This document shows positions 1 through 55,939 of a DNA stretch of 64,000 nt, in pieces. The notes under the pieces were generated by a model. It was given only the letters and a program-made list of their open reading frames with translations. It ran no database searches and was not told where the DNA came from. The stretch comes from Burkholderiales bacterium (GTDB lineage Bacteria; Pseudomonadota; Gammaproteobacteria; Burkholderiales; JBDZVW01). The first letter of the stretch is position 1, and each line of letters opens with the position of its first letter. The stretch is from assembly GCA_035700525.1 (NCBI GenBank), contig DASSON010000073.1, positions 2,266 through 66,265 on the forward strand, given 5' to 3'. The position numbers and the translations under genes were made by a program.

Positions 1-756
<756 letters not shown>

Positions 757-891
757 CGTCGACGGATCCGAGCGCGGCTGGGTCAAAACACAATCGTTCA
801 CACGAGTTCTCCAGGGTGACGAAGTTGGCATCCGCAGCGCCGCGCTCGACGCTCCGGTGCAGGATGAAATCAATAACGCGACGCCGTCGAA

Positions 892-1482: not shown

Positions 1483-1709
1483 GTCGATAGTGCCCTTTCC
1501 TTCCGCGTCAGGGATAAAGATTATACGGACCGATCGCTTTCTGATCAAATCATTTCGATACGAATTATTCTTACTGTAATGAATTTTATCCAGTGAGACG
1601 CGATTGCGCTTCACGACAACGCCCGCCGGCATACATACCACCGTTGCGACGTTGAGCAATCAAAGACTTGCGGTTATAGTCACAAGCAGTCCATTGCGCG
1701 GCAACGTTG

Positions 1710-28343: not shown

Positions 28344-28415
28344 TTAACCATGCGCCTCATTCATCGGAAAGCCGGCGCGGGCAATGTGGCTGTACCTATT
28401 GACGCACTCACTCTC

Positions 28416-29597: not shown

Positions 29598-29610
29598 CCG
29601 GAATTCCCCC

Positions 29611-32600: not shown

Positions 32601-32760
32601 GCGCCACGCCATCGGCACCGGTGTGATCGGCGGCATGCTGTTCGCGACGATTTTCGGGTTGCTGCTGATCCCCGTGTTTTACGTGATTGTGCGGCGGATC
32701 GTTGGCGACAAGCTCGATCGGGCCGGAGCGACGGAAGAAAAGCCGCCGACGAAGGTGTAA
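29611..32760 (+). CDS. HAE1-type RND multidrug efflux permease (AcrB/MexB-like)
   Basis: [23 protein letters not shown] N-terminus; 1049 aa. No OMP gene in this operon. Confidence 0.95.
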   Translation: [1049 protein letters not shown]

Positions 32761-36100: not shown

Positions 36101-36230
36101 CAGCGTTCTCGGTCTTCGGATACTGGGTCACCGGCAGCAGGTTCAATGACCGCAGGCCGAGCACCAGGATCAGCAGACTGATGACGGTCGCCAGTACCGG
36201 CCGCTTGACGAAGATGTCGGTAAATTTCAC
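33171..36230 (-). CDS. RND multidrug efflux permease (MdtB/MdtC-like)
   Basis: MKFTDIFVKRPVLATVISLLILVLG N-terminus; 1019 aa, 12-TM RND architecture. Confidence 0.95.
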   Translation of the reverse strand: MKFTDIFVKRPVLATVISLLILVLGLRSLNLLPVTQYPKTENAVITVTTIYTGASPDLVAGFITTPLENAIAQANGIDYLQSSSTQGLSTITANLRLNYDANKAMTEISAQVNSVLNQLPPDALKPTIKLSIGQTTDAMYMAFYSDTLPSNKVTDYLLRVVQPKLSTVDGVQQAEILGGRQFAMRVWLEPDKMAAYGVSAAQVRQVLAANDFISAVGRTEGQMVTVDLIASTGVHSVDEFKKLIVKSQNGAIVRLGDVAHITLGAEDYNTSVVFDGLHAVFIGIKVAPAANLLTVIDRVRHVFPQIQSQLPQGLQAKIVYDSTDYINSSIHEVLQTLIEALVIVTIVIFLFLGSIRSTLIPIIAMPLSLIGAFLFMLVLGYSINLLTLLALVLAIGLVVDDAIIVVENVHRHMELGSSPFEAALAGARELGSPIIAMTIVLIAVYLPIGFMGGLTGALFTEFAFTLVAAVVVSAIMALTLSPMMCSKFLKQDSGKQRLVHFLDQLFERVRLRYVHVLKGVLDYRLVTAVFALIVLVSIYFLYATSKKELAPDEDQGVVLINGTAAPNATLQQTELYSNQIINIYKNLPEHAHLFMINGYQGLNTVIAGIVLKPWDQRSRTQMQVQPIIQKELNDITGLKAAAFPFPPLPGARGFPVQFVLGTTEPFLRLYDVSQELVKRAEASGMFFFVDNDLKYDKPQTTIVIDRNKAADLGLTMSDIGQDLGAMLGGGYVNFFSISGRSYKVIPQVQQRHRLNAAQLENYYIRTGSGAMVPLSTVASLKTTVVPETLNHFQQLNAATISAVTRPGITTGQALTWLGQQAKEVMPPGYTIDYAGQSRQYVQESSALLVTFFFSIIIIFLVLAALFESFRDPLIVLISVPMSICGAMIFISLGLSSLNIYTEVGLVTLIGLISKHGILIVQFANDLQRAGKAKREAIEEAAGIRLRPILMTTAAMVLGVLPLITASGAGAVGRFDMGLVIATGIGIGTLFTLFVVPTMYLFLAEEIEPEGEAETGPVTT

Positions 36231-36237
36231 GATGAAC

Positions 36238-37371
36238 CTATGATTTGTCGGCAGGCATCGGCGCCGGATTGTTCGTCGGCTGCACCCTGTTGTTGATCGT
36301 CACCGGGCTGCCGTTGCGGAGTTTGATCTGGCCGCTGGTGACGACCTGTTCACCGGCCTTGACGCCTTTTTCGATGGCGACCTGGTCGCCGCGCGTCTCG
36401 CCGGTCGTCACGAAGCGCTGTTGTGCGATCAGTTGCGGATGGCCTTTGCCATCCTTGCCCTTGTCCTCGATCACGTAGACCGTGTCCCCATACGGATTGT
36501 AGGTGACCGCGGTCTGCGGCAGCGTGACGACATTCTGTTGCTGCGGCAGCTCCACCGCGACGGTGCCGAACATTCCCGGCGCGAGCTTGTGCTCGGCATT
36601 GGCGAGTTTGGCCTCGACCGCGAAATTACGAGTGGCAGGATCGATCTTCGGATTGATCGCGGTGATCGTGCCGCCGAATTTGACGTTCGGATAGGCATTG
36701 GTGGTCAGCGTGATCGGCTGGCCGACACGGGTCTTGCTCAGATCCTGCTGCGGCAGCGAGAAATCGGCGTAGAGCGGATCCAGTGCCTGCAGCGTGACGA
36801 TGTTGGCGCCCGCGGCAACGTATTGCCCGACATCGACCTGGCGAATGCCGAGCCGGCCCGAAAACGGCGCGCGTATGGTCTTCTTCGCCACCAGCGCCGC
36901 CTGCTGATCCGCCTGCGCCCGCGCGTTGTCGAGCTGGCTGCGATCGGTGTCAACCTGCGCCTGCGATGCGATGCGGCGCGCCAGCAGGCCGCGGTCGCGA
37001 TCATAATTGATCTGCGCCAGCTTGACCTGTGCCTGCAGGCCGCGCAGCTTCGCCCTGTCGGCATCCGCTTCGAGCTGCACCAGCACCGTTCCCGCCTTGA
37101 CCGCGTCGCCGGACTTGAAGTCGATCTGCTTGACGATGCCGGCCACTTCGGTCGTGACATCGACCCCTTGCACCGCGCGCAAACTCGCCACCGAGTGCAG
37201 TTCCGGGCTCCATGTCGCCACCGTTGCCTTTTGGGCGGTCACCGCTTGCGACGGGATCGGCATGCTCGCCATGTACTTGGCGATCATGTGCGACTTGAAC
37301 AGATCCCATCCGAAAATGCCGCCGAACACGATCGCCACCGCGATCAACATGATGATCATGCGTTTTGCCAT
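36238..37371 (-). CDS. RND efflux periplasmic adaptor (MFP)
   Basis: N-terminal anchor MAKRMIIMLIAVAIVFGG, then HlyD-type lipoyl and barrel motifs. Start trimmed to the ATG at 37371. Confidence 0.9.
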   Translation of the reverse strand: MAKRMIIMLIAVAIVFGGIFGWDLFKSHMIAKYMASMPIPSQAVTAQKATVATWSPELHSVASLRAVQGVDVTTEVAGIVKQIDFKSGDAVKAGTVLVQLEADADRAKLRGLQAQVKLAQINYDRDRGLLARRIASQAQVDTDRSQLDNARAQADQQAALVAKKTIRAPFSGRLGIRQVDVGQYVAAGANIVTLQALDPLYADFSLPQQDLSKTRVGQPITLTTNAYPNVKFGGTITAINPKIDPATRNFAVEAKLANAEHKLAPGMFGTVAVELPQQQNVVTLPQTAVTYNPYGDTVYVIEDKGKDGKGHPQLIAQQRFVTTGETRGDQVAIEKGVKAGEQVVTSGQIKLRNGSPVTINNRVQPTNNPAPMPADKS

Positions 37372-37399
37372 AACCGACTCTTTTTGTGTATGTCCCGAT

Positions 37400-38998
37400 T
37401 TATTGATGCACGGATGAATTTGAAGCCGCGGTGGCGGAAACGGGTGTCGCAGCCGCCGTACCGCCGGCAGCGCTCCACCAGCCGCCGCCCAGCGCCTGGA
37501 ACAGCGCGGCGGTGTCCTGGTAACGCGTGCCGAGTGCCTCGACATAGCCGATCCGCGCCTGCTGGTACTGGCGTTCCGCCAGCAGGATCGCGAGATAGCT
37601 CGAGGCGCCGGCCTTGTACTGCTCGCGGGAAAGCGCGAGACTTTCACCGGAGGCCTTCATTGCCTGCGATTGCGCCGACAGTGCCTGCGCGTCATGCTCG
37701 AGCGCGCGCAGCACGTCGGCAACCTGCTGAAACGCGGTCAGTACCGTCTGCTTGTAATTCGCCGCCGTCTGTTCATAAGCGGCGACCGCCGCGCGTTTCT
37801 TCGCGCGCAGCGTGCCGCCCTGAAAGATCGGCGCCATCAGATTGGCGCCCAGATTCCAGATCGCTCCGCCGGGACCAAACAGATCGTTCACCTTGTTGGC
37901 GGCCTGTCCGTACGATCCGGAAATGCTGATGTTCGGATAAAGCGCCGCGGTCGCCACGCCGACCTGCGCACTGGCCGCGTGCAATGCACTTTCCGACGCG
38001 CGAATGTCGGGCCGTTGCCGCACCAGTTCGGAAGGCAGTGTCAGCGGCAGCTTCTGCGGCAGCGTCAATGCGCCAATGTCGAAATCGGCCATCTTCAATT
38101 CGGCCGGAAACTGGCCGGTCAGCGTCGCCAGTGCGTGCCGGGTCTGCGACACGCGCTGCTCCAGCGGCGGCAATGTCGCACGGGTCAGCGCCAGTTGTGA
38201 TTGCGCACTCAGCACGTCGGCATAGGCGGCGGCACCGAGTGCGACCTGCTGCTTGACCAGCTTCACCTGTTCCGCCTCGGCGGAAATGATTTCACGCGTT
38301 GCCGCAATCTGTGCCCGCAGCGCCGCCTCGTTGATCGCCGCGGTGACCACATTCGATGCCAGCGTCAGATAGGTTGCCTGCAATTCATAGCGCTGGAAAT
38401 CGACCTGTGCCTGCAGCCCTTCCAGCGTGCGCCGCGTGCCGCCGAAAACGTCGAAGTCGTAAGCGACGTTGACCGACGCGGTATAAAGATTGAAGACACC
38501 GCCCAGCCCGCCGGCGCCGCCGCCGAATGTGGCGCCGTTGACCTTTTCGCGCGCGGCCGACGCTCCAACATTCAGCGACGGATAGAGCGCGCCGGAACCG
38601 GCCTTGAAGTTTTCCTCCGATTCGCGCAACGCCGCCTGCGCCGCAGTGACCGTCGGACTGTCCTTGAACGCGCGCTCGATCAGCCCGTTGAGCTCGGACG
38701 AATGGAACAGCGCCCACCACTGCTGCGGGATTTTCTGCACCTGCGTGAACGTCTGGGCCTTGCCACCGTGGCCCGGCGTGGCGCGCGTGGTGTCGGCAAT
38801 CGGCTGGTGCGTATATTGCGTGACATCCGGCGCCGCCGGCTGCCTGAAATCCGGACCAACGGCGCAGCCACCGAATACCGCCGTGGCCACGGACAGCACG
38901 ATGCCGGCTGCGGCGCGGCGCCTGGAAAAGGGAGTGTCTTGCGTCAAACCGAAGGTTTTCTGTTTGCGGTTCACCGAAGCTCCGATCTGAAAGTTCAT
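37400..38998 (-). CDS. NodT-family outer-membrane efflux lipoprotein
   Basis: Lipobox VFGG-C and duplicated TolC-type repeats. The ATG at 38998 overlaps the TetR stop as ATGA. Confidence 0.9.
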   Translation of the reverse strand: MNFQIGASVNRKQKTFGLTQDTPFSRRRAAAGIVLSVATAVFGGCAVGPDFRQPAAPDVTQYTHQPIADTTRATPGHGGKAQTFTQVQKIPQQWWALFHSSELNGLIERAFKDSPTVTAAQAALRESEENFKAGSGALYPSLNVGASAAREKVNGATFGGGAGGLGGVFNLYTASVNVAYDFDVFGGTRRTLEGLQAQVDFQRYELQATYLTLASNVVTAAINEAALRAQIAATREIISAEAEQVKLVKQQVALGAAAYADVLSAQSQLALTRATLPPLEQRVSQTRHALATLTGQFPAELKMADFDIGALTLPQKLPLTLPSELVRQRPDIRASESALHAASAQVGVATAALYPNISISGSYGQAANKVNDLFGPGGAIWNLGANLMAPIFQGGTLRAKKRAAVAAYEQTAANYKQTVLTAFQQVADVLRALEHDAQALSAQSQAMKASGESLALSREQYKAGASSYLAILLAERQYQQARIGYVEALGTRYQDTAALFQALGGGWWSAAGGTAAATPVSATAASNSSVHQ

Positions 38999-39699
38999 CC
39001 GCGCACCACGGAACGACGTGCGGACGCACTGTTTTTCGTGCCTGCCGCGGCTTTTTTGCAGGCGGCGATCCCGTTGACCAGCACGTCGCAGCACTGGCTG
39101 GCATAGCGCTCCGGATTGTCGGTGAAGCGGACTTCCGGCAGATAACGGATCACGTCACGCCACAGAAAGAATGTGACGTTCGCCGACAGCAGCATGCCGG
39201 CGACGATCGCCGGATCGAGATTTTTCCGCACGTCGCCGCAGCGCTGGCTTTCGCGCACGTGTTCGACCAGCTGCGAAAAATTGCGGCCGAATACGCGCTC
39301 GGCCAACTGATGGCCACGGCGCTGCCCGTTGTCCAGCACTTCACGCATCACCAGCCGCGTGCGGCGCTCGTCCTCGAACAGGGTTTCCATGTGCCCACGC
39401 GAAAAGCGGGTCAGCCGCGCCCCGAGCCGGCCGCGCCCCGCAAAACCGGCCTCGACCAGCGGGCCGAAGTTCGAGCACGCGCCGCGCAGCACTTCGATAT
39501 AGAGCGCTTCCTTGGAACTGAAGTGATGGAAGATATTGGCCTTGCTGACCCCGGCGCGCGCGGCGATCGCGTTCATCGACACCGCATCATAGCCACGCGT
39601 CGAAAACAGCTGGCGCGCGGCGAAAAGTATCTTCTGTTCACGCGAACCCTGCCGCGGGCTCTTGCTTTTGGTTTTTTCGGTCACGTTCCGGGGACGCAA
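38995..39699 (-). CDS. TetR-family transcriptional repressor
   Basis: HTH AARQLFSTRGYDAVSMNAIAARAGVSKANIFHHFSSKEALY. Start uncertain (TTG at 39699 or GTG at 39684). Confidence 0.9.
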   Translation of the reverse strand: MRPRNVTEKTKSKSPRQGSREQKILFAARQLFSTRGYDAVSMNAIAARAGVSKANIFHHFSSKEALYIEVLRGACSNFGPLVEAGFAGRGRLGARLTRFSRGHMETLFEDERRTRLVMREVLDNGQRRGHQLAERVFGRNFSQLVEHVRESQRCGDVRKNLDPAIVAGMLLSANVTFFLWRDVIRYLPEVRFTDNPERYASQCCDVLVNGIAACKKAAAGTKNSASARRSVVRG

Positions 39700-44879: not shown

Positions 44880-46094
44880 TCACTGCGGCATGGCCTTATC
44901 CAGCGACGCGAGGAACTGATCCGCCGACTGGAACCCGATCACGCGCGGCTTCACCTCCTTGCCATTCCGGTCGAAGAAAATAATGCCCGGCGGACCAAAC
45001 AGCCGGAAGCGCGCGAGCAGTGCCTTGTCGTCGGCGTTGTTGGCGGTAACGTCGGCCTGCAGCAACATTGCATTCGCGAGCCTCGCCTGCACGCGCGGAT
45101 CGCTGAACGTAAAGCGCTCCATCTCCTTGCATGAAACGCACCAGTCCGCGTAGAAGTCGAGCATCGCATAGCGACCATGCGCGGCGGCAAGCTGTGCATC
45201 GAGATCGGATACGCTTTTAATCCGCTGGAACGGCAGCCGCACCGGTTCAGCCGCAGCGCCACCTCCGCGCAGAATCGCGAGCGGCTGCAGCGGATCGCGG
45301 CTGCCCGCAAGCACGCCAACCAGCAGCGCGACTCCGGCGGCCAGCACGATCACGCCGACGCCCTTGCCCAGGCGACGCACGCCGGACGCCACGACCGGCA
45401 ACGGGTCGAGCGCACGCAGATACATCGATCCGACAATCAGCACTGCCGCCAGCACCAGCATCACCCACAGTCCGCCGAACCGGGACGGCGTCGCCACATC
45501 ATTGATTGTTCCGGACACCGCGGACGCCAGCGGTTGCGCGTCCGCCGACGGCGCGGCCGTTGCAACAGCCGCCGGCAAATCGAGATCGAATGTTTTTTCG
45601 AGCGGGACGTAGCACACGCCCTTCGGCTCGTTGCACCCCTGCCACGTCGCGTGCAGCGCGAGCTGCGCGGCGGCGGCAGATGCGCGCTTCAGCGCAATGC
45701 GCACCGTGAATGGCTGGCGATAGATTTCCATGGGACCGAAAGCCGGATCATTTTTCATCACCCCCTTCGGCAGATCGACGCCGGCGATCGTGACGCCGCC
45801 CGGCTTCAGCACCTTGAAGTGGATGCGGTCATGGTACAGGTAGTAATCCTTCGCCGGCGTGAAGCGGGCGATCAGCGTATTCGCATCCTTTACCGTGATC
45901 GCGAGCTTGAACGCCTGCTCCGGCGGCAGCAATTCGTCCGTGCTGTTGTTGCCGCCCAGCCATTGCTCGAGACCGGCGACCCGGATGATGCCCGGCGCAG
46001 CCGTCTCACCTGCGTGCGGCACATGATCCGCCGCGCTTGCCGCCGCGGCAAAGCACAGCGTCGCCAGCAGCACCACTGAAATCCGAATTTTCAT
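44880..46094 (-). CDS. DsbD-like thiol:disulfide interchange protein lacking most of the membrane core
   Basis: Signal peptide, DsbD-alpha domain (WQGCNEPKGVCYVP), only two hydrophobic helices, then a DsbD-gamma thioredoxin domain (MLDFYADWCVSCKEMERFTFSDPRV). Start trimmed to the ATG at 46094. Confidence 0.75.
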   Translation of the reverse strand: MKIRISVVLLATLCFAAAASAADHVPHAGETAAPGIIRVAGLEQWLGGNNSTDELLPPEQAFKLAITVKDANTLIARFTPAKDYYLYHDRIHFKVLKPGGVTIAGVDLPKGVMKNDPAFGPMEIYRQPFTVRIALKRASAAAAQLALHATWQGCNEPKGVCYVPLEKTFDLDLPAAVATAAPSADAQPLASAVSGTINDVATPSRFGGLWVMLVLAAVLIVGSMYLRALDPLPVVASGVRRLGKGVGVIVLAAGVALLVGVLAGSRDPLQPLAILRGGGAAAEPVRLPFQRIKSVSDLDAQLAAAHGRYAMLDFYADWCVSCKEMERFTFSDPRVQARLANAMLLQADVTANNADDKALLARFRLFGPPGIIFFDRNGKEVKPRVIGFQSADQFLASLDKAMPQ

Positions 46095-46152
46095 TCCGTT
46101 CATGCTTGCTCGATGATGCGCCGCCAATGCGGCACGAAACCAATGCTCATTA

Positions 46153-48486
46153 CTATAACTCCACCCGGCGCAGCCGCAGCGCGTTGCCGATCACCGACAC
46201 CGAGCTGAAACTCATCGCGGCGCCGGCAATGATCGGCGACAGCAGCAGTCCGAACGCCGGAAACAGCACGCCGGCCGCCAAGGGGATGCCCAGCGCATTG
46301 TAAACGAACGCGAAGAACAGGTTCTGACGGATGTTGCGCATCGTTTTATGTGATAGTCGCCGTGCTTTCGCGATGCTGCGTAAATCGCCCTTCACCAGCA
46401 CCACGCGCGCACTCTCCATCGCCACGTCGGTGCCGCTGCCCATCGCGATGCCGACCTGCGCCTGCGCCAGTGCTGGCGCGTCATTGATGCCGTCACCGGC
46501 CATCGCAACGATCCTGCCTTCAGCCTGCAGGCGCTTCACGATTTCATACTTGTCCTGCGGCAGCACCTCGGCGTGAATTTCATCAATGCCGAGCTCGTGC
46601 CCGATTGCTTCCGCGGTCGCACGGTTGTCGCCCGTCAGCATCACGATGCGCAACCCCGCTTGCTTGAGGATATGCACCGCTTCCGGTGTTGACGCCTTGA
46701 TCGGATCAGCGACGCTCACCAGCCCCGCAGCTTTACCGTCCACCGCTACCAGCATCGCCGTCTCGCCTTGGCGGCGCAGAGCATCCGCCGTCTGCGCCAG
46801 GTCGTCGGTCGCGATCCCGTTATCCTGCATCATCCGGCGATTTCCCACCAGCACGATGCGATCCGCAACCGTGCCGCGCACACCCTTGCCGGTGATCGAT
46901 TCGAAATCGGCAGCCGCATCGGGTCTGATATCGCGTTCCGCGGCGCCGGCAACGATCGCTGCGGCCAATGGATGCTCGCTCGCATTCTCGATGCTGGCGA
47001 CAAGCCGCAGCAACTCGTGCTCGTCAAATCCGTCAACGGTTCGGACCGTACGCAGCCGCGGCCTGCCCTCAGTCAGCGTGCCGGTCTTGTCCACCACCAG
47101 CGTATCGACCCGCTCCATTACTTCCAGCGCCTCGGCGTCCTTGATCAGCACACCCTCGCGCGCGCCGCGCCCGACCCCGACCATTACCGCAATCGGCGTC
47201 GCCAGGCCCAGCGCGCACGGGCAGGCAATGATCAGCACTGACACCGCCGCGACCAGTCCGTGCACCAGCACCGGCTCGGGTCCGATCGATACCCATACGA
47301 TCAGTGTCACGATCGCAGCCAGCACCACGCCCGGCACGAACCACGACGACACGGTATCGGCGAGCCGCTGAATCGGCGCCCGCGAGCGGCTGGCGTGCAC
47401 CACCAGATCGGTGATGCGCGCGAGCAGCGTATCGGCGCCGACTTTCTCGGCTTTCATGATGAATGCGCCGGTCTGATTGACGGTGCCCGCGGTCACCGCA
47501 TCGCCGTCCGATTTCGTGACCGGCAGCGGCTCCCCGGTCACCATCGATTCGTCGATCACCGAAGCGCCTTCCAGCACCGAACCATCGACCGGCACTTTCT
47601 CTCCGGGCCGGACACGCAGCCGGTCTCCGGCATGCACATTGTCGAGTGCGACATCTTCCTCGTTGCCATTTTCAGCAATGCGCCGCGCGGTGGTCGGCGC
47701 CAGCCCGAGCAGCGCCTTGATCGCGCCCGACGTGCGCGAGCGCGCGCGCAATTCCAGCATCTGGCCCAACAGCACCAGCGTGATGATCGCCGCCGCGGCC
47801 TCGAAGTAGATCGGCAGCATGCCGTGCGTCTTGAACGATTGCGGCAACATACCTGGAAACAGCAGCACGAACAGGCTGAACAGATAGGCTGCGGCGACAC
47901 CGAGCCCGATCAGACTCCACATATTGAGCGCGAGTGTGCGGTACGAGCGCCACGCGCGCACGAAGAACGGCGCGCCGCCCCATAGCACGACCGGGGTCGC
48001 AAGCACGAATTGCAGCCAGTCGAACGGCGCCGCTCCGAGCCAGTCGCGAAAGCGCACACCCGGAATCATGTCGCCCATCGCCAGCACCAGCACCAGCAGC
48101 GGAATGGTCAGCGCCACGCCAATCCGGAAACGCCGCGTCATCGACGTCAGTTCCGGATCCTCCTGCTGTTCGAGAGACGGCGTGCGCGGCTCCAATGCCA
48201 TGCCGCAGATCGGACAGGACCCGGGCCCGGACCGCACGATCTGCGGATGCATCGGACAGGTGTACTCGATTGCCGGTGCGGTCGGCAGCATCGGCTCCAG
48301 CGCCATCCCGCACTTCGGACAGTCGCCCGGTTTGTCCTGCACGATCTCCGGATGCATCGGACAGGTATAGGCGGCTTTACCAGCCGGGACGGACGATTTC
48401 GAATTGCCGGCTGCCGGCAGGTCATGGCAACGCGCGCACGCTTTTTGCGCGGTGGCGGAATGTTTCATTCGGCGTTTTGGTTCCAC
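46153..48486 (-). CDS. copA: copper(/silver)-translocating P1B-type ATPase
   Basis: CPC motif [13 protein letters not shown], phosphorylation site [15 protein letters not shown]. Two N-terminal CPMHP(E/Q)IV...CP(K/I)CGMALEP metal-binding modules replace a GMTCxxC HMA domain. Start is GTG at 48486 or ATG at 48468. Confidence 0.93.
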
Positions 48487-48515
48487 GATGGCGCTCCACG
48501 CAATATACGCGAGTG

Positions 48516-48565
48516 ATCGTATACCCCATGCCAGTATACGTCAAATACCTATATAGGGTATATAG
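48516..48565. promoter_or_regulatory. candidate ATPase promoter with two dyads
   Basis: On the minus strand, TTGACG (48544-48539), a 17-nt spacer, then TACGAT (48521-48516). Dyad cgtatac-N9-gtatacg (48518-48540) fills the spacer. A perfect ctatata-ggg-tatatag dyad (48549-48565) lies just upstream. Confidence 0.35.
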
Positions 48566-48618
48566 CCGCCCCAGCGTCGCGTCAGGCATGCAGATTCACC
48601 ATGCGCGCGCAACCCGGT

Positions 48619-49578
48619 TCATTTACCTGCGAGCCGCATGGCAAGTGCTGCCGCATAGCCAAGAGCGAACCCCGCGGCCGGCCCTACCAGCCAGCCTTTC
48701 AAGATGCCCATGACGACCGGCCACTGCACCGTATCACGCCCGCGCGCGAGGCCGGCGCCGGCCATGGCACCGATGAGCGCCTGGTTCATCGATGTGAAAT
48801 AGCCGAAACCTACCGCCGCCAGCACCACCAGCGCCTGCACGCCCTGCGCCGCGGTAGCCATCGTGAGATCCATCTTTACCACGTCGAAAGCGACTCGTTC
48901 CAGTAAAGGCTTGCCCCACGTGATGACGCCGAGCGCCAGACCTAATCCACCGACCAGCCCGGCAACGAAAACGCCAAACAGGTTCGTGGTCAGAAAAACA
49001 GCCGTGGCGTTGGAGACATCGTTGGCGCCCATCGTAAGTGAAGCCAGTGCTCCGACCGCGACCAGCGCGCCGGTAACGAACGCGACATGCCCGCCGCGCG
49101 CCTGAAACCATGGCAAATGGTCCAGAAGCCGGGTAAATGCGAACCCCAACGCCAGTGCGGCCAGCGGCGCTATCGCCCACAGCACGGCCAGCCGCGCAAT
49201 GGTGTCCCAGCGAACTGGCAGGCCCAGCGCCAGCCCTACGCCCGCGATCGAAAACACCAGAATTTGAATGGTGGACGTCGGAATGCGCAATGCGTTGAAG
49301 ATCGTGGTGAGCACAAACGCCGCGCCGACAACGGCAAGCGCCGCACCGAGACTGATGCGCTGCGCGCGAATGATGCCGTGCCCCACGGTGGCGAGCACGC
49401 CATGACTCAGAAAAGTGGCCCCAAGCAAGGTCAGAATCGCCATCAGCACAAGCGCCGGCCACAGGCGGATTGTCTTTGCCGCATAAGGCATGCCCATGCA
49501 GGCACCGGTGTAGTGCGCACCCATGCTCCAGGCGAATCCGAACGCCACTACAACCAAGGCCCATGCGACGCTCGACAT
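48619..49578 (-). CDS. PiT/PHO4-family permease (short form)
   Basis: Second-half signature GANDVSNA is present. The first-half signature is degenerate (SMGAHYTGA). 319 aa, polytopic. Confidence 0.8.
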   Translation of the reverse strand: MSSVAWALVVVAFGFAWSMGAHYTGACMGMPYAAKTIRLWPALVLMAILTLLGATFLSHGVLATVGHGIIRAQRISLGAALAVVGAAFVLTTIFNALRIPTSTIQILVFSIAGVGLALGLPVRWDTIARLAVLWAIAPLAALALGFAFTRLLDHLPWFQARGGHVAFVTGALVAVGALASLTMGANDVSNATAVFLTTNLFGVFVAGLVGGLGLALGVITWGKPLLERVAFDVVKMDLTMATAAQGVQALVVLAAVGFGYFTSMNQALIGAMAGAGLARGRDTVQWPVVMGILKGWLVGPAAGFALGYAAALAMRLAGK

Positions 49579-50046
49579 CTACCGGCCCTGCTTCGCTTTC
49601 CGAATCGCCTGATCGAGGACAGCATGATGCTCATCATGCCGCACGACGAATTCCTTCAGCGACGGCACCACCGATTTTTCGCACCATTCATGAAGCCGGG
49701 CGCGTTCTTCGCGCGGACCCGGACTGTAATGCTTCCTGATAGCAAGCAACGCTCCCTTACGCGCAGCGTTCGCAGATCGAACCGCAATCCGCCGCGCTTC
49801 GGATTCAGGCAGGCCCGGAATAACTTCGCTTCGGATATGTAGCATCAATCCTCGCATGTCGCCGACGGTGCTTCTTGTTCTGTCGATGATCGAAGGATCA
49901 TACTGCGCACAGTAAAATGCAAAATTATCTGCAACGTCCGCCCTCTCCAAAATTCGCACGAGCCTTTCATCATCGGCGGCAAAAGCGGGCGCCCAGACGA
50001 GAACGATGAGCGTTGCGCTCAATCCGGTTTTTGCCCGGCATTTCAT
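49579..50046 (-). CDS. hypothetical secreted alpha-helical protein
   Basis: Signal peptide MKCRAKTGLSATLIVLVWAPAFA. GGAG lies 6 nt upstream of the ATG at 50046. The stop abuts the PiT ATG. Confidence 0.55.
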   Translation of the reverse strand: MKCRAKTGLSATLIVLVWAPAFAADDERLVRILERADVADNFAFYCAQYDPSIIDRTRSTVGDMRGLMLHIRSEVIPGLPESEARRIAVRSANAARKGALLAIRKHYSPGPREERARLHEWCEKSVVPSLKEFVVRHDEHHAVLDQAIRKAKQGR

Positions 50047-50077
50047 TATCATCTCCGCATAATGAAGGTAGATCCGG

Positions 50078-51835
50078 CTACTGTCCGCCGACGTTGACGA
50101 TTCCGACCATGCCCGCACCGAAGTGACCCGGTTCGTGGCAACCATATCCGATTTTCATCGGCTTGTCCGGAAATCGCCAGGTGATGGATTTCGTTGCGCC
50201 CGGCGCGATGCTGATGCCGTTCGCATCATCGTGCATCGCCATGCCGGGCATTTTCTTCATCATTGCCTGCATCTCGGCTTCGTGTTCTTTCTGCTCCGTG
50301 GCGTCGCCGATCACGAATTCATGCCTGATCCTGCCGGTATTGGTCACTTCGAACCGGACGACTTCCCCGGGTTTGACCGTGATCGCAGCCGGACTGAAAC
50401 GCATGGCATCCTGTGCTTTTATCCTCACCACCCGATCATGCGCGCCTGGAACTGCAGGACTTCCAAAACTGAACTGCGATCCATGTTGATGCCCGATGCC
50501 GCCCATGTCGTGTCCGGAATCATGAGCAGCCTTCGCCCCCGCCGCGCCAAGCGCCGACAGATATGCCACGGTCCCCTTCGGATGCTTGTACCATCCGGGA
50601 TCACGATAATCGCCAGGCGCAAGATTTTCGCGAACCTTCACCATCGTAAACATTCCGCCCATCTCGATCGAGCCAAACGGCCCCTTGCCGGTCATCATCG
50701 GCAGCGTGTTCTCGGGAAGTGGCATGCCCATCTGCGCCATTTCCGCCATGTCAGCCATGCCGTTCTGTCCCATCAGCATGTAGTCGGGCAGCAATGACTG
50801 GATTTTCTTTTCCGTGTCCTTCATGTCCACCCCGATCATATTCGGGATGCCGTGGCCCATCGAATTCATCGTATGGTGAGAGCGATGGCAATGAAACGCC
50901 CAATCCCCTGGATTGTCGGCGATGAACTCGATGACCTGCACACTCCCCACCGGCACGTTCCAGGTTGTCGCCGGCCATTGCGCGGACTCGGGGAACCAGC
51001 CACCGTCGTTGCCGGTGATCCTGAACGAGTGCCCGTGCAGATGCATCGGGTGGCTGTCCATGCTCAGGTTGCCGATACGGATGCGTACCCGCTCGCCCAG
51101 CCGCACCGGCAGCGGCGCGGTGCCGGGAAACACCCGACTATTCAAGGTAAAGATGTTGAAGTCGGTCATCACGCTGGGATCGGGGCGCGCGGTGCCGGGA
51201 TGGATCGCCCACTCATGCAGCATGATGCAGTAGTCGCGGTCGATCTTCGGCCCCAGCGGCTCCCTGGGATGCGCGATGAAAAAGCCCATCATACCCATCG
51301 CCATCTGCACCATTTCATCCGAATGCGGGTGATACATGAAGCTTCCGTGCTGCTTCATGGTGAACTCGTAGACGAAAGTCTTGCCCGGCGGGATGTGCGG
51401 CTGGGTCAGTCCGCCCACGCCGTCCATGCCGTTGGGAACGAAGATGCCATGCCAGTGCACTGTGGTGTGTTCCGGCAGCTTATTCGTCACCAGGATACGT
51501 ACCCGGTCGCCCTCCACCACCTCGATCGTCGGCCCCGGCGTCTGGCCGTTGTAGCCCCAGCAATTGACCATCATGCCCGGCGCGAATTCGCGCTTCACCG
51601 GCTCGGCAATCAGGTGAAACTGTTTTACGCCATTCACCATTTTCCATGACAGCGTACGGCCATTTGGTGTCACCACCGAAAGGTACTCACCGTTTCCGGC
51701 CGCAGGTGGCCGCGTCGCGGCAGCTTTCGCATACGGTGCCGCCTCTTTCGCGGACACATGCTGCGCCCTCAATAAACCGGTCGAACCCGCCAGCGCAGCC
51801 AGGCTCGACAACAACATTTCGCGTCTGGTCACCAT
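50078..51835 (-). CDS. Tat-exported multicopper oxidase fused to a C-terminal cupredoxin (CopI-like) domain
   Basis: Twin-arginine signal MVTRREMLLSSLAALAG. MCO motifs HWHG, HPMHLHGH, HCHRSHH. The C-terminal ~120 aa carry type-1 Cu ligands (RHEF...GCHEPGHFGAGM) and a Met/His loop EHEAEMQAMMKKMPGMAMHDD. Confidence 0.9.
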   Translation of the reverse strand: MVTRREMLLSSLAALAGSTGLLRAQHVSAKEAAPYAKAAATRPPAAGNGEYLSVVTPNGRTLSWKMVNGVKQFHLIAEPVKREFAPGMMVNCWGYNGQTPGPTIEVVEGDRVRILVTNKLPEHTTVHWHGIFVPNGMDGVGGLTQPHIPPGKTFVYEFTMKQHGSFMYHPHSDEMVQMAMGMMGFFIAHPREPLGPKIDRDYCIMLHEWAIHPGTARPDPSVMTDFNIFTLNSRVFPGTAPLPVRLGERVRIRIGNLSMDSHPMHLHGHSFRITGNDGGWFPESAQWPATTWNVPVGSVQVIEFIADNPGDWAFHCHRSHHTMNSMGHGIPNMIGVDMKDTEKKIQSLLPDYMLMGQNGMADMAEMAQMGMPLPENTLPMMTGKGPFGSIEMGGMFTMVKVRENLAPGDYRDPGWYKHPKGTVAYLSALGAAGAKAAHDSGHDMGGIGHQHGSQFSFGSPAVPGAHDRVVRIKAQDAMRFSPAAITVKPGEVVRFEVTNTGRIRHEFVIGDATEQKEHEAEMQAMMKKMPGMAMHDDANGISIAPGATKSITWRFPDKPMKIGYGCHEPGHFGAGMVGIVNVGGQ

Positions 51836-51836
51836 G

Positions 51837-53321
51837 TCAGTGCCCTCCATGCCGATGTTCGGATGCTCCTGCCGACCGCGGCTGCGGCTGGGGCCGTGGC
51901 GAAGCTTCGGGTTGTGTCGCCGCCGGCGGCACTTCTGCCTTTACCGGAAGCGGGCCGCCGATTGCCTGCTCCAGCGACGCATGTGCCAGCCAATAATCGC
52001 GCAGTGCACCGATGTAGCCGCGTCCCGCGTCGATTTCGGCCTGCTTAGTGCGCAGCAGCTCGTAGACTCCGACCAGCATGCCGTTGTAATAGCGGTAGGA
52101 AAGTTTCACCAGTTTCTGGTTGAGCGGCAGGATCGCGTGACGGTAGTGCCGCACGGTCTGCTCGTCGATCAGAAGTTTTGCTCGCGCTTCACGTACCTGG
52201 GAGCGGATGTCTACAGCCAATGCGTCGCGCTCCTTCTCCTGTTGGCGCAGCAGCGCTTCCAGCCGCGCGATGCGCGCCTGTCCCTGGTCGAAGATCGGTA
52301 ACCCGATCGACAAGTCAGGACCGGTGACTGTCGCGCCTTCGGCATCGCGCTCACGGCTCACACCCACCGCCACGTCGCCCACGTAACGGTAGTCGCGCGT
52401 GTAGCCGAGTGCGTAACGCAATGTCTCGACCGACTTGCCCATCGCAGCGAGATCAAGGCGATTATCGATGGCATAGTCTTCAAGACTCCCCGGATCGGGC
52501 AACGCCGCCGGCACGTCCGGTAGCCGCATGGGCAGTGAGTACTGTATGTCCTTGCCCCACAACCCCATGATGCGAGTAAGCGCTTCGCGATCGCGCTCCA
52601 ATTGCTCCCGGGCCCGCACCACATCGAGGGCGGCCTGCGCGTAGAACGCCTGCTCGCGCGTCTGGTCCAGCCGGCTGATGTTGCCCGCCTGGAACTGCCG
52701 CACCGCGATTTCCGCCGTCGCCTCCGCGGCCTTGGCCGCGGTCCGATTCATCTCCACCAATTGCGCATCGGACACGGCGGTGTAGTAGGCGGATTTCACC
52801 TCGGCGGCAAGCTTGAGCACGGCATGGGCAGTCTGCAGTTTAGTCTGATCGAAGTTGCCCTGCTCGACCTTCATGCGCGGCGTGCGCGTGAGAACGCCGA
52901 AAAAATCCTGTACCACGCCGAACTCACGCCCGGTGCCACCGCCACCCGTGCGCACCTGGGCACTGAACACCGGATTCGCGAGCAGACCCGACTGCACCAG
53001 ATCGGCCTGCGAGACGCCCAGCTCTTCATACTTCGCCTGCAGCACGGCGTTTCGCAGCAGCGCGATCTGCACTGCGCTGTCTACGCTCAGCGGCTGCGCG
53101 AGCAGCCTCCCGACCGCCGCCTGCGCCGCCTGATCGTCAGCCGTGTTGCGGTTCCACTGCACTTTCTGCGGCAGGCGTGAAGCCACCGCTTGCCGCACGT
53201 CCGAAAAACCGGCATCTTTCGGCACTACGGTGGTGCAGCCGCCGAGCGCTGTCGCGGCCAGAATGATTGTGCTGGCAGCTCTGATCGAAGACCGGACACG
53301 CGGCTTTCGGTTGTTGGCCAT
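51837..53321 (-). CDS. TolC/NodT-family outer-membrane lipoprotein (no RND or MFP partner in the operon)
   Basis: Lipobox ALGG-C, two TolC repeats, Pro-rich His-ended tail. The stop is 1 nt from the oxidase ATG. Start trimmed to the ATG at 53321 (RBS GGGGAAA). Confidence 0.85.
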   Translation of the reverse strand: MANNRKPRVRSSIRAASTIILAATALGGCTTVVPKDAGFSDVRQAVASRLPQKVQWNRNTADDQAAQAAVGRLLAQPLSVDSAVQIALLRNAVLQAKYEELGVSQADLVQSGLLANPVFSAQVRTGGGGTGREFGVVQDFFGVLTRTPRMKVEQGNFDQTKLQTAHAVLKLAAEVKSAYYTAVSDAQLVEMNRTAAKAAEATAEIAVRQFQAGNISRLDQTREQAFYAQAALDVVRAREQLERDREALTRIMGLWGKDIQYSLPMRLPDVPAALPDPGSLEDYAIDNRLDLAAMGKSVETLRYALGYTRDYRYVGDVAVGVSRERDAEGATVTGPDLSIGLPIFDQGQARIARLEALLRQQEKERDALAVDIRSQVREARAKLLIDEQTVRHYRHAILPLNQKLVKLSYRYYNGMLVGVYELLRTKQAEIDAGRGYIGALRDYWLAHASLEQAIGGPLPVKAEVPPAATQPEASPRPQPQPRSAGASEHRHGGH

Positions 53322-53333
53322 GATTTTCCCCAC

Positions 53334-53708
53334 TTAATGCTGCATGTGCTGCATCTGACCGTGGCCCACGTCCGGCATATTCTCCATCCCCGGCATGTTT
53401 TTCATGTCGCCCCGTTTCGATTTGTTCGAGCTGGCCGGCTTACCTTCCATGCTCTTCATATCGCCCATGCCTGGCATGTTGTGCATGCCTTGCATTCGAT
53501 GATCTCCGGAAGTCGCATTGCTTCGGGAATTGGCCATCGCGCCGGAATCGGCAACGAAATTCCGATAATCGGAAAACACATCCGAATAGGAAGCGGCCGG
53601 TGCAACCGGCGCGTTGGGATCGGCCGGGCTTTCCGCCGCCGATAAAGCGGCCTGCGTGGCCATCGCGCACGCCAGCGTCGCGCCAACGGCAATGTGCTTG
53701 CATTTCAT
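53334..53708 (-). CDS. secreted Met/His-rich protein
   Basis: Signal peptide. The last ~55 residues contain 12 Met in M-x-x-M/H spacing (HRMQGMHNMPGMGDMKSMEG...GDMKNMPGMENMPDVGHGQMQHMQH). Confidence 0.65.
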   Translation of the reverse strand: MKCKHIAVGATLACAMATQAALSAAESPADPNAPVAPAASYSDVFSDYRNFVADSGAMANSRSNATSGDHRMQGMHNMPGMGDMKSMEGKPASSNKSKRGDMKNMPGMENMPDVGHGQMQHMQH

Positions 53709-53841
53709 TGTTCAATCCTCGTCTCAAGAACCGGCGCGCGCATTGCGGTTACCGGTTGATATCCGGAATTCGGCCTGCACCGGGAAACGCATTCAGCCGG
53801 CCGAAACCCGGCTCTCCGGAACCGCAAGGGTCCCGGCAAAA

Positions 53842-54207
53842 TCAGGCGAGGAAAGCTACCGGAGGCCGGTAGAAAGAAGCAGAAATGAAAGAAACGAAGG
53901 AAACTTCGAAGTCCGGCAGCATGACAGGATGGTAATCCGTGTCTCGCGCCACTGTCGGTGTATTCGGCACATAGGCCGCAGTGCAGACCGCGCAAAGGTT
54001 GCACAGTGCACACTCCTGGCTTTGCGTCCCGGTATGATGCGCGCCGTGTTTCGTGTGCGAAACCGAAGCATGCGTCACACCATCCGTGGGCACCATCGAT
54101 GATGCTTCGTGCGGACACGCCACGCCGGCGGCCATCGCTGCGCCTTGTAGCGGCAGCAAGAATGCAACAGCCAGCAGGATGGCCAAACGTAGGCCGTAGC
54201 TACGCAT
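53842..54207 (-). CDS. secreted Cys/His-rich protein, CzcI/CopL-like (paralog 2)
   Basis: Signal peptide, His cluster HTKHGAHH, CALCNLCAVC, C-terminal ...FYRPPVAFLA. Same layout as 55577..55939. Confidence 0.55.
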   Translation of the reverse strand: MRSYGLRLAILLAVAFLLPLQGAAMAAGVACPHEASSMVPTDGVTHASVSHTKHGAHHTGTQSQECALCNLCAVCTAAYVPNTPTVARDTDYHPVMLPDFEVSFVSFISASFYRPPVAFLA

Positions 54208-54410
54208 GGAGCGGCATGTTACGTCCACGTATCCGGACCGTCAAGACAAGGAACGTCTTGATGCAGCAGCGTATCAACGGATGCGCCGACTGCGGTCAAT
54301 GGGGCTCCCATGCCGACCACCCGTAAATAATGCGAGCGCGTCCAGTACACCATCATCCGTCTGCCCGATATAAAGCAGCCTGGCCGCAACAATGTTCACT
54401 CATTGGTCCT

Positions 54411-54896
54411 TTATGCCTTGGGCGCCCACTTGGCGTCCACCGCAGATTGTATCCTGGCAGCGTCGGTTACACCCTTTTGAACCAGGGTGTAGGCGATCTC
54501 GGCCGTGCCGCGACAGACCTCACAATTCACCGCCATTTCGTCTTCAAAGCATTGCAGGTTGGAACGATGGGCACCACGATTCTCGCAGCCACACCAGCAA
54601 TAAAGCTGATTGAGCGTTGCCGGAATCTGCGTCGCCACCCAGTAGGCATGCCGGACTTCGGGTCGGCTGAACCGGTTCGGATTCAATACACGGGAGGCAT
54701 CCGAGCGGCCGCCCGGAATGATGCGCAACCCGTCGGAACGCAGCATGCCAACCTTCCATTCCGAAGCCTGCACACTTTGCGCGTTTGCGCGCACGGTTAT
54801 TCCAAGTCCTACCGCGCCCGCGGCCAGCACTGTACTCGCGAGCGCAGAACGCAGAAGTCTGCGACGCTTCGGATCGGGCAATTGAAAACGTTTCAT
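54411..54896 (-). CDS. PCYCGC-motif family protein with a Tat-type signal
   Basis: MKRFQLPDPKRRRLLRSALA signal. YCWCGCENRG...CFEDEMAVNCEVC cysteine pattern. Start trimmed to the ATG at 54896. Confidence 0.7.
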   Translation of the reverse strand: MKRFQLPDPKRRRLLRSALASTVLAAGAVGLGITVRANAQSVQASEWKVGMLRSDGLRIIPGGRSDASRVLNPNRFSRPEVRHAYWVATQIPATLNQLYCWCGCENRGAHRSNLQCFEDEMAVNCEVCRGTAEIAYTLVQKGVTDAARIQSAVDAKWAPKA

Positions 54897-54986
54897 ATAC
54901 GTCCCCATTATTGATATCACGCTAAAAATAACCGCACGCCACGGCGAAAATACCGATCGCCGCGGCATGCGGCCACACTGCGGACT

Positions 54987-55373
54987 TTATTTCGACTGCT
55001 GCGGCTTTATCTTGTCGGCGTATTTGACGAGGATTTTACCCATCGCCTCCATCATCTCGCCGTGCATCCGCATCGCGAGCGCTTCGTCCCCGGTAGGGAA
55101 GCGGCCCATCATTGGACACCCGCCGCCCATCATCCCCATCATTCCACCCATCATGCCGCGGCCCATCATCCCGTTACCCATCATGCCGTTACCCATCATG
55201 CCGTTACCCATATTGCCCATCATTTGGGCGTTCATTCCCGGCATGGCTTTCGTGCCTTGCTCACTCTGCGGATGATGATGCGTGGATGCCTCACCTTCCG
55301 CCGCAAGGCTCCATCCGCTTGTTCCGACAAGAACCGCAGCAAGCAATACCGGGTACAGTTTTTTCGCGTTCAT
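54987..55373 (-). CDS. secreted Met/Gly-rich protein with GNGMM repeats
   Basis: Strong RBS AAGGAG and a signal peptide. 25 Met in 128 aa by my count, in MPGMNAQMMGNMGNGMMGNGMMGNGMMGRGMMGGMMGMMGGGCPMMG. Confidence 0.7.
   Translation of the reverse strand: MNAKKLYPVLLAAVLVGTSGWSLAAEGEASTHHHPQSEQGTKAMPGMNAQMMGNMGNGMMGNGMMGNGMMGRGMMGGMMGMMGGGCPMMGRFPTGDEALAMRMHGEMMEAMGKILVKYADKIKPQQSK
55162..55210. repeat. 15-bp tandem repeat inside the Met/Gly-rich gene
   Basis: cccatcatcccgtta / cccatcatgccgtta / cccatcatgccgtta, then a degenerate fourth unit. It encodes the GNGMM units. Confidence 0.8.
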
Positions 55374-55576
55374 ATCAATCTCCTTGAATCAGATTACCAG
55401 GCTCGATCCAGCGACCTCTGGACAACGCCACAGGAAGATGACGCCGCCTGTCATACCTCGAACAATAGGACAGCACACGCCCTTGTTTGCGCCAGATGTT
55501 CGGTGAAATTTGGTAAAGTAGCGCCCGCAGCGGGCTGCGCACGATCAGACCGCCAAATGGCGTCCATGAAAGAGGA

Positions 55577-55939
55577 TTACGCGACGAGCGGAGGCCGTTG
55601 CAACTGTTCCGGAATGAACAGCGACATGCGATGATCAACCAACGAGTGGTATACGGCAGAAAACTCCAACAGGGGCGGCAACGATGCCGGGGCCGGGATC
55701 GCTGCTCCGGTACAGGAAAGGCTGCATGCTCCGCCGTGGCAAGCAGGCGACATCGGCGCCGTCCGGCCACTGCAATCGGAGTGATCGCCGACCTGGTCAC
55801 ATGGGACGGCTCGTACCCCGTCGGCCATTGCCGCCGTCCGGGACGACTGCGCATGACATGGCATCGCCGTCGCGGCAAAACCGGCAACCGGCGGCCATGC
55901 GATCAGGACCAGCATCACCAGATGAATGACGAACTTCAC
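55577..55939 (-). CDS. secreted Cys/His-rich protein, CzcI/CopL-like (paralog 1)
   Basis: GTG start, signal peptide MKFVIHLVMLVLIAWPPVAGFA, seven Cys (PCHA, PCDQ, DCSG, ACHGGACSLSC), C-terminal ...EQLQRPPLVA. TATAAT (55954-55949) lies only ~10 nt upstream of the start. Confidence 0.55.
   Translation of the reverse strand: MKFVIHLVMLVLIAWPPVAGFAATAMPCHAQSSRTAAMADGVRAVPCDQVGDHSDCSGRTAPMSPACHGGACSLSCTGAAIPAPASLPPLLEFSAVYHSLVDHRMSLFIPEQLQRPPLVA

Follow-up and report, generated by a model that had tools for sequence, protein, structure and literature searches.

A multicopper oxidase fused to a CopI-like cupredoxin within a known copper-resistance operon type

In several bacteria, some of them pathogens, the periplasmic protein CopI contributes strongly to copper tolerance (PMC7558416, PMC13308877). 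The protein is defined by a His-Cys-His-Met green centre, a conserved internal His/Met-rich segment, which is crucial for copper resistance in Rubrivivax gelatinosus CopI, and a variable His-rich N-terminal site (PMC13308877). Here we analysed a 64,000-nucleotide stretch of a Burkholderiales bacterium genome (GenBank assembly GCA_035700525.1, contig DASSON010000073.1), hereafter the window, in which a multicopper oxidase (MCO) and a CopI-like cupredoxin are encoded as one polypeptide of 585 amino acids (aa). The open reading frame (ORF) spans 50078..51835 and, like all features below unless stated otherwise, lies on the minus strand of the window. It does not represent a new system; it is a gene fusion within a known and widespread operon type that encodes a small exported protein, a TolC-like outer-membrane efflux protein (OEP), an MCO and a CopI-like cupredoxin.

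A published operon with this gene order is the 'MCO operon' of Sinorhizobium meliloti CCNWSX0020, which consists of genes for Omp (omp, SM0020_18792), CueO (cueO, SM0020_18797), an azurin-like protein and a Cu chaperone (PMC6266702). Copper induces omp 646-fold and cueO 243-fold, and an omp mutant is copper-hypersensitive (PMC4932525); the model proposed for the operon is that copper is oxidized and then exported across the outer membrane (PMC6266702). Our link to CCNWSX0020 rests on the homologous plasmid locus of S. meliloti LMB1 together with the published gene order. The PcoA/PcoB and CopA/CopB systems likewise place the gene for a periplasmic copper oxidase, exported by the twin-arginine (Tat) route, beside that for an outer-membrane protein; however, PcoB and CopB are barrels encoded downstream, whereas the outer-membrane partner in the window is a TolC-family protein encoded upstream.

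A structural precedent is Nmar_1354, the archaeal MCO4 (PDB 9CCK), in which a two-domain MCO is joined by an unstructured linker to a pendant C-terminal cupredoxin, with 13.5 Å between the two type-1 (T1) coppers; this lineage was described as unique to ammonia-oxidizing archaea (PMC11761707). The fusion in the window has the same architecture, and the cores of the two proteins are homologous (E = 6.6e-21) and were also matched by fold search. The archaeal lineage oxidizes hydroxylamine, whereas the fusion is found in a betaproteobacterial-type metagenome-assembled genome (MAG), in a copper-resistance context, and carries a CopI-type domain with extra His/Met copper sites. The fusion arose separately from MCO4, from adjacent genes, and a two-domain MCO with a pendant cupredoxin has therefore arisen in bacteria too.

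Architecture and origin of the fused protein

The fusion ORF is uninterrupted in the window. Contigs from four JGI metagenome samples, each assembled separately, carry an identical ORF of 590 aa, and Logan contigs carry the 585-aa form; in the window, another ATG located 15 nt upstream, at 51850, would give the 590-aa form. A second lineage, represented by the Burkholderiales MAG GCA_035707545.1 (locus L021), reads YRHPKGTMAY-PLAVVATAAA-SDSMHG... across the same junction, in frame and without a stop. The fusion is thus real, and the refuting alternative named in an earlier note on this DNA, made from the sequence alone, that a sequencing frameshift conceals a separate cupredoxin gene, does not hold.

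All Pfam hits on the protein exceeded the curated cut-offs and comprised Cu-oxidase_3 (residues 83-192, 134 bits), Cu-oxidase_2 (residues 224-328, 113 bits) and Copper-bind/Cupredoxin_1 (residues 465-582). The earlier note had listed a Tat signal and four MCO copper motifs, all of which we located. The signal peptide (MVTRREMLL...AQHVSA; 51749..51835) contains a twin-arginine pair, R4 R5, that is invariant in 50 family members, and the motifs are HWH (127-129), HPH (169-171), HxxHxH (262-267) and HCHxxxHxxxxM (315-326). The T1, T2 and T3 copper ligands within them (H127/H129, H169/H171, H262/H265/H267, H315-C316-H317, H321 and M326) are invariant across 50 homologues.

The MCO core (residues ~55-330; 50846..51673) was delimited by Pfam, alignment to two-domain MCOs and superposition of an AlphaFold2 (AF2) model. 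Residues 76-329 align co-linearly with the whole of the two-domain enzymes 2ZWN (mgLAC), 3G5W (Nitrosomonas europaea blue copper oxidase) and 3GDC (Arthrobacter two-domain MCO), while three-domain MCOs (6VOW, 4F7K) align in two split pieces with their middle domain unmatched; in sequence, domain 1 is nearest to the three-domain MCOs 6VOW and 6VOX. As a joint MAFFT alignment had placed CopI homologues on MCO domain 2 (15-26% identity to the query), two separate AF2 models were used. For the oxidase, 50 family members went into the model; its core is predicted with confidence and superimposes on 3GDC, 2ZWN and 3G5W with a root mean square deviation (rmsd) of 3.2-4.1 Å over 264-277 columns (Foldseek TMt 0.67-0.75), compared with 17-20 Å on three-domain MCOs. 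Domain 1 carries HWH and YHPH, and domain 2 carries HPMHLH and HCHRSHHTMNSM, with the T1 Cys316 in the stretch FHCHRSHHTMNSM. Where the oxidase has YHPH (domain 1) and FHCH (domain 2), the aligned motifs of the type-C enzymes 2ZWN and 3G5W are YHCH and FHDH/IHDH; with a T1 Cys in its second domain but not in its first, the oxidase follows the type-B motif order.

The core is therefore a two-domain, type-B-order MCO, sharing with the type-B Arthrobacter enzyme both the two cupredoxin domains and the T1 Cys in domain 2. The earlier note had expected Pfam Cu-oxidase 1-3; the protein is indeed an MCO but has two domains and is not an ordinary three-domain CopA or CueO. Both of those identities were rejected, as the domain count disagrees and the scores fall far below the family cut-offs (CopA/PcoA model copper_res_A, TIGR01480, 171.8 bits versus 478.95; CueO, NF008205, 94.3 bits versus 525). 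Unlike the solved two-domain MCOs, the oxidase also has a Tat signal, a near-obligate pairing with a TolC-like gene and a Met-rich tail of ~95 residues after the T1 Met. This tail (residues 331-425, ending at a conserved GTVAY; 50561..50845), defined by Met count and family alignment, includes a 71-residue span (330-400) with 14 Met. An MGGMFT strand and many of the Met residues do not vary among the 50 family members, and its predicted local distance difference test (pLDDT) scores are low except in the strand at 396-402. Met-rich tails by the T1 site are the kind of feature linked to Cu(I) handling in CueO.

The C-terminal domain (residues 467-585 plus stop; 50078..50437) was recognized by Pfam Copper-bind, NCBIfam CopI models and AF2. 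Its T1 ligands are H505, C566, H571 and M576 (GCHEPGHFGAGM). Across 41 aligned CopI-like sequences, H505 never varies, and C566, H571 and M576 are almost fully conserved (≥90%); H79 and M83 of the cupredoxin domain are also nearly invariant. An internal His/Met loop (residues 515-533) lies within EQKEHEAEMQAMMKKMPGMAMHDD, residues 513-536 (6 Met and 2 His within residues 506-540). A His-rich segment, AHDSGHDMGGIGHQHG, precedes the cupredoxin fold, at the place where aligned stand-alone relatives have their His/Met-rich N-termini. All three CopI copper features are thus present in the fused domain. R. gelatinosus CopI, a periplasmic green cupredoxin for copper tolerance, shares the H/C/H/M centre and the His-rich N-terminal stretch (PMC13308877), and its loop reads KAHAQEMRAMPDMQHAD where that of the fusion reads EQKEHEAEMQAMMKKMPGMAMHDD; in contrast to that protein, the CopI part of the fusion is not a stand-alone Sec-exported protein but is covalently tied to an O2-reducing oxidase. 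The alternative raised in the earlier note, an ordinary MCO extension lacking the Cys, His and Met ligands, fails, and the T1 ligands and Met/His-rich loop that it had assigned to this region agree with the Pfam and NCBIfam architecture.

The best NCBIfam models for the last 130 residues are two CopI models (E = 4e-25 and 7e-29), although the curated CopI cut-offs were missed (NF047895, 88.5 versus 200 bits; NF051440, 100.8 versus 280 bits). The stand-alone cupredoxins found next to this oxidase family in other genomes likewise score below these cut-offs. We therefore term the domain CopI-like and do not certify it as an orthologue. Modelled alone, it reaches an AF2 pLDDT of 90.4 and matches the folds of auracyanin, azurin and the green cupredoxin AcoP. 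CopI-like domains were also found at the C-terminus of membrane proteins of the CopD type (64% and 56% identity), on a P-type ATPase fragment, and at the N-terminus of a 553-aa protein whose remainder has no Pfam match (hits P0134, P0135, P0200 and P0178), suggesting that CopI is a module that can be added to various copper-handling proteins.

Between the two halves, Y425 is followed by LSALGAAGAKA-AHDSGHD..., of which the first part is an apparent signal-peptide remnant with an AxA site. This junction and linker (residues 426-466; 50438..50560; pLDDT 24-46) aligns with the hydrophobic core, AxA site and His/Met-rich start of stand-alone CopI precursors (70-77% identical) and looks like a remnant of CopI's own signal peptide. 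An unfused relative, P0126, is 92% identical over the 246 residues up to Y425 and then ends in ELKK-stop, with the next gene starting 48 nt past its stop. The simplest reading of these alignments is that a deletion removed the last four codons of the oxidase, the spacer and the first part of the copI signal-peptide coding region, which would have joined the two proteins. Comparison of the window with L021 (dS ~0.55-0.67) gave dN/dS values of 0.18 for the cupredoxin part, indicating purifying selection on the fused domain, and 0.39 for the linker. In L021 the fusion is followed by genes for a CopA ATPase and a DsbD_N-thioredoxin protein, as in the window.

Two further sequences bear on the fusion gene and its origin. 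In the NCBI record of what is probably the window contig, which also carries the OEP, the cupredoxin is annotated only as P0124, a product of 142 aa beginning at an internal Met of the fusion ORF (window 50078..50506). Public annotation thus seems to split the fusion and hide its architecture, so that MCO-CopI fusions may be under-counted. The closest stand-alone CopI (locus L022; Logan SRR28167104 contig, 173..2137; 76% identity) lies beside a three-domain PcoA-type oxidase and is preceded by a DUF2946/CopL-like gene that is, by eye, ~75% similar to window 53842..54228. The CopI domain of the window may accordingly derive from a resident copI beside which an OEP-oxidase cassette landed.

The operon family and the distribution of the fusion

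We compared the locus with its relatives. An OEP homologue (26-44% identity) is encoded directly upstream of the oxidase, on the same strand, in 60 of the 61 loci with a visible upstream flank, a count that is unbiased by the query. In a smaller set, this arrangement was present in 13 of 14 loci with enough flank, the exception being Candidatus Jettenia (L006), where the oxidase stands alone; locus L005 and a Geobacter locus (L008) share the OEP-oxidase pairing. A separate ORF with the CopI-type motif lies within 1.5 kb downstream of the oxidase in 68 of 79 loci, a figure inflated by the collecting query, which itself included CopI. Among relatives from the order, a separate CopI-like gene was located ~100-400 nt downstream of the oxidase at 11 loci in 10 genomes.

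The same order is found on plasmids of Ralstonia wenshanensis, S. meliloti, Agrobacterium, Methylobacterium nodulans and Marivivens, where the genes are annotated as TolC family, copper oxidase (~430-450 aa), cupredoxin or plastocyanin/azurin family, and copper-binding protein. A hypothetical-protein gene precedes them in four of five annotated plasmids, none being listed for Methylobacterium (PLSDB table). Taken together, the plasmid oxidase and cupredoxin cover 91% of the query at 48-56% identity. The plasmid operons differ from the window in two respects: their oxidase and cupredoxin are separated by an in-frame stop, whereas the window encodes one polypeptide, and their CusF-like 'copper-binding protein' gene is absent from the window, which has genes for a 155-aa protein and a PiT-like permease instead. 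The pairing of OEP and oxidase in 60 of 61 loci marks a widespread plasmid-borne copper-resistance element.

The fusion, in contrast to the gene order, is unusual. None of the 79 species-representative loci encodes a fused MCO-CopI protein, and the 120 best full-length homologues of the fusion are all unfused, 420-460 aa long and at most 71% identical. A word-indexed search with residues 440-585 against proteins of 322-1024 aa, which requires exact 5-mers, matched the query's own cluster alone. HMMER with the CopI domain against 1.84 billion representatives found no MCO-CopI protein among the best 150 of 2733 hits, although CopD-CopI and other fusions were among them. The earlier note had proposed a survey of both MCO-TolC adjacency and the fusion: the adjacency proved not to be peculiar to this locus, and the fusion was indeed uncommon. 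As CopI is normally encoded by a separate next gene, the fusion alone is new.

Sixteen plasmid records initially looked fusion-like, as a single tblastn piece spanned both halves, and were rejected: all seven that were inspected have an in-frame stop between the genes, and the other nine are annotated as two genes. In L023-L029 (two Ralstonia, S. meliloti, S. americanum, Agrobacterium, Methylobacterium and Marivivens), oxidase and cupredoxin are in the same frame with one stop between them, and the gap is 12-42 nt in five annotated plasmid records. A single mutation could fuse such a pair, in which case the whole signal peptide would be kept.

Proposed function of the tethered domains

The best explanation of the locus is probably that of a copper-detoxification operon in which, by analogy with archaeal MCO4, the fusion would act as a periplasmic Cu(I) oxidase with a tethered domain for Cu capture and electron relay. 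The protein would be exported folded by the Tat system and assemble as a homotrimer like other two-domain MCOs, with trinuclear clusters at the subunit interfaces. Whereas CopI is normally exported unfolded by a Sec-type signal, its counterpart in the fusion would be Tat-exported within a folded protein. The neighbouring CopA ATPase would deliver Cu(I) to the periplasm, where flexible His/Met segments of the tethered CopI domain, along with the Met-rich tail of the oxidase, would capture it. Oxidation would take place there, with the electron passing from the CopI T1 copper to the oxidase T1 copper, the trinuclear cluster and finally O2. The lipoprotein OEP would most probably let copper out across the outer membrane, the role suggested for Omp in S. 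meliloti.

As a 'Rosetta stone', the rare fusion suggests that the two-domain oxidase is the redox partner of CopI in operons where the genes are separate. The selectively kept fusion and the strongly conserved oxidase-then-CopI order would nominate the two-domain oxidase as CopI's partner, and the fusion offers a single-polypeptide model protein for the idea of a CopI-oxidase partnership.

Several points weigh against this account. With none seen among 79 loci or among the 7 plasmid records inspected, the fusion is rare, and tethering is clearly not required. The full-length AF2 model is of low confidence beyond residue 330, and the predicted trimer is extrapolated from the family, that is, from solved two-domain relatives. 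L021 starts at a contig edge, so that just 10 oxidase residues are visible, and the closest stand-alone CopI adjoins a three-domain PcoA-type oxidase, not a two-domain one. In addition, CopI reportedly has its main importance when oxygen is scarce or absent (PMC13308877, PMC4600104), a setting in which an oxidase that depends on O2 would help least; the two may therefore be parallel rather than serial defences.

A more far-reaching proposal, which we put forward tentatively and regard as possible but not likely, is that throughout this operon family CopI is the dedicated Cu(I)-capturing electron-donor subunit of a trimeric type-B oxidase which, together with the small Met/His-rich protein and the adaptor-less OEP, would form a pump-independent 'oxidise-and-vent' machine that clears copper from the periplasm through the outer membrane, a bacterial architecture convergent with archaeal MCO4.

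Alternatively, the fusion may be a tolerated accident, with the CopI domain working as free CopI does, as a periplasmic copper buffer or oxidant that needs no oxidase, or being set free by proteolysis at the signal-peptidase-like AKA/A site, so that the tether would have no mechanistic role. We consider this rather unlikely. It would fit the rarity of the fusion and the arrangement on many plasmids, where the same frame and the single stop 12-42 nt away mean that fusions are easily made by chance. The faster evolution of the linker relative to the domain (dN/dS 0.39), the absence of the cupredoxin from one in three subunits in Nmar_1354 crystals (PMC11761707), and the occurrence of CopI-like domains on CopD, a P-type ATPase fragment and another large protein, as expected of a generic copper-handling add-on, are also in line with it. 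However, the fused state has been kept in two lineages separated by a dS of ~0.55-0.67, with strong constraint on the cupredoxin; the strongly conserved order of MCO then CopI argues for a functional link; and the remnant hydrophobic stretch is probably too short for a membrane-inserted signal peptide. We favour a tethered capture and relay domain over an accidental fusion.

The outer-membrane channel and the surrounding genes

The OEP gene (51837..53321; 494 aa from its ATG) is translationally coupled to that of the oxidase. The minus-strand junction is ...ggc cac TGA c ATG gtg...; as the earlier note had stated, just 1 nt separates the OEP stop (51839-51837) from the start codon of the oxidase at 51835, and a GGAGG lies 8 nt 5' of that ATG. 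The OEP matches PF02321 with two repeats (102.5 bits versus a cut-off of 22), and is a predicted lipoprotein with a lipobox, ATALGG-C29, identified by pattern; all eight homologues examined also have a lipobox-like Cys. It had been described as a NodT/TolC-type lipoprotein. Membership of the OEP family and the lipobox hold, but the protein scores below the cut-offs of both NodT (TIGR01845, 33.9 versus 210.05 bits) and TolC (TIGR01844, 51.3 versus 225.15 bits).

The C-terminus of the OEP (51837..51930) is a Pro/Ala-rich, probably disordered tail ending in EHRHGGH. Five of eight homologues end in ..GGH, ..QGH or ..QSH, the tail being seen in L005, L008, L023 and L026. On this pattern, the His-ended tail could be a copper-binding or partner-docking feature specific to this OEP family.

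No gene for a resistance-nodulation-division (RND) permease or membrane fusion protein (MFP) was found by Pfam or NCBIfam in the co-directional string 44880..55939, which includes the CopA P-type ATPase and the PiT-like permease; the statement that the operon contains no inner-membrane pump or adaptor therefore stands. Elsewhere in the window, ~13-23 kb away, there are two multidrug-type RND systems. The first, on the plus strand at 28350..32760, ~19 kb away, is an MFP-RND pair (a MexX/AcrA-like adaptor and a permease) without an outer-membrane factor (OMF) gene of its own. The second, on the minus strand at 33171..39094, is a complete OMF-MFP-RND set with a NodT-type OMF (37400..39094, 439.5 bits on NodT). 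A Cus-type partner for the OEP is unlikely, as no CusA/CzcA-type pump above the family cut-off was found in the 84%-complete genome.

The near-obligate pairing across genera and phyla favours a role of the OEP tied to the oxidase module. Alternatively, the OEP could be an ordinary OMF whose place in the copper operon reflects co-regulation alone, its client being a distant MFP-RND or ABC pump such as the pair at 28350..32760. TolC-family channels need a periplasmic adaptor to open, and the pair at this position is an MFP-RND pair lacking an OMF; moreover, in L005 and Geobacter L008, RND genes, accompanied by CusB in L008, lie within a few kb of the OEP-MCO pair. We nevertheless consider a distant pump an improbable client. 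The OEP gene is directly upstream of the oxidase in 60 of 61 loci from many genera, mostly without an adjacent pump gene, and the CusA/CzcA search was negative. The protein itself is very divergent from NodT and TolC, with a family-specific lipobox and GH-ended tail, and the S. meliloti omp mutant is copper-hypersensitive (PMC4932525). Secretion of the oxidase through the OEP was also considered and is implausible for a folded, Tat-exported oligomer.

A role in the oxidation of other substrates appears quite improbable. The oxidase would then be a MoxA-type Mn(II) oxidase or another metallo- or phenol oxidase, with the OEP placing the enzyme or its product at the cell surface. JGI calls one family member that is 67-71% identical (P0020) a 'manganese oxidase', and the Pedomicrobium moxCBA operon presumably has the same layout, with genes for a small protein, a TolC-like protein and then an MCO. 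In one phylogeny, MoxA falls among non-Mn MCOs (PMC8218464). However, the context is copper-specific throughout, comprising the CopA ATPase, CopI, Met-rich proteins and, in relatives, CusF. The Met-rich tail by the T1 site resembles that of CueO, and a folded trimeric oxidase would not be expected to pass a TolC duct. The genetics of S. meliloti also point to copper (PMC4932525).

Finally, that the two genes are truly separate and the fusion an artefact of assembly or sequencing, as the cupredoxin-only annotation P0124 (142 aa) on what is probably the window contig might suggest, can be dismissed with near certainty, as the ORF is unbroken in the window and identical in four separate assemblies and Logan, L021 has the same in-frame junction, and P0124 is an in-frame sub-sequence from an internal Met, as an annotation split would give.

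The copper setting of the locus is marked by the CopA ATPase and Met-rich proteins and, in relatives, also by CusF. The first gene of the module (53842..54228), called from its ORF, encodes a DUF2946/CopL-like Cys/His-rich exported protein. The counterpart position in R. wenshanensis is annotated 'DUF2946 family protein' and is followed there by genes for a hypothetical protein, TolC, copper oxidase and cupredoxin. A promoter-like site lies near the start of this gene, at 54244-54216; a promoter and terminator scan gave nothing above shuffled expectation that marks the operon limits.

Downstream of the fusion, the next gene encodes a 155-aa exported protein (49579..50046) that was called in all JGI contigs; a 188-aa reading of the same ORF (49579..50145) has no Pfam or NCBIfam match. 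Its stop abuts the start of a PiT/PHO4-family permease gene (48619..49578; PF01384, 128 bits), and the two genes (48619..50046) occupy the place where relatives have the CusF-like 'copper-binding protein'; L021 lacks both. These are followed by a gene for a CopA-type Cu(I) P1B-ATPase with HMBD repeats (46153..48486; TIGR01511, 597 bits versus a cut-off of 397; PF19335).

Upstream, 12 nt 5' of the OEP ATG, lies the gene for a 124-aa exported Met/His-rich protein (53334..53708) without a Pfam or NCBIfam match. Small genes for exported proteins or lipoproteins, several with Met/His-rich tails, occupy the same pre-OEP position in L005 (4216..4530), L008 (4056..4397) and L023; the product is exported and often a lipoprotein. 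The Rhizobiaceae versions are without the Met-rich part, and between genera the Met/His-rich C-terminal part, although not alignable by BLAST, is alike in composition.

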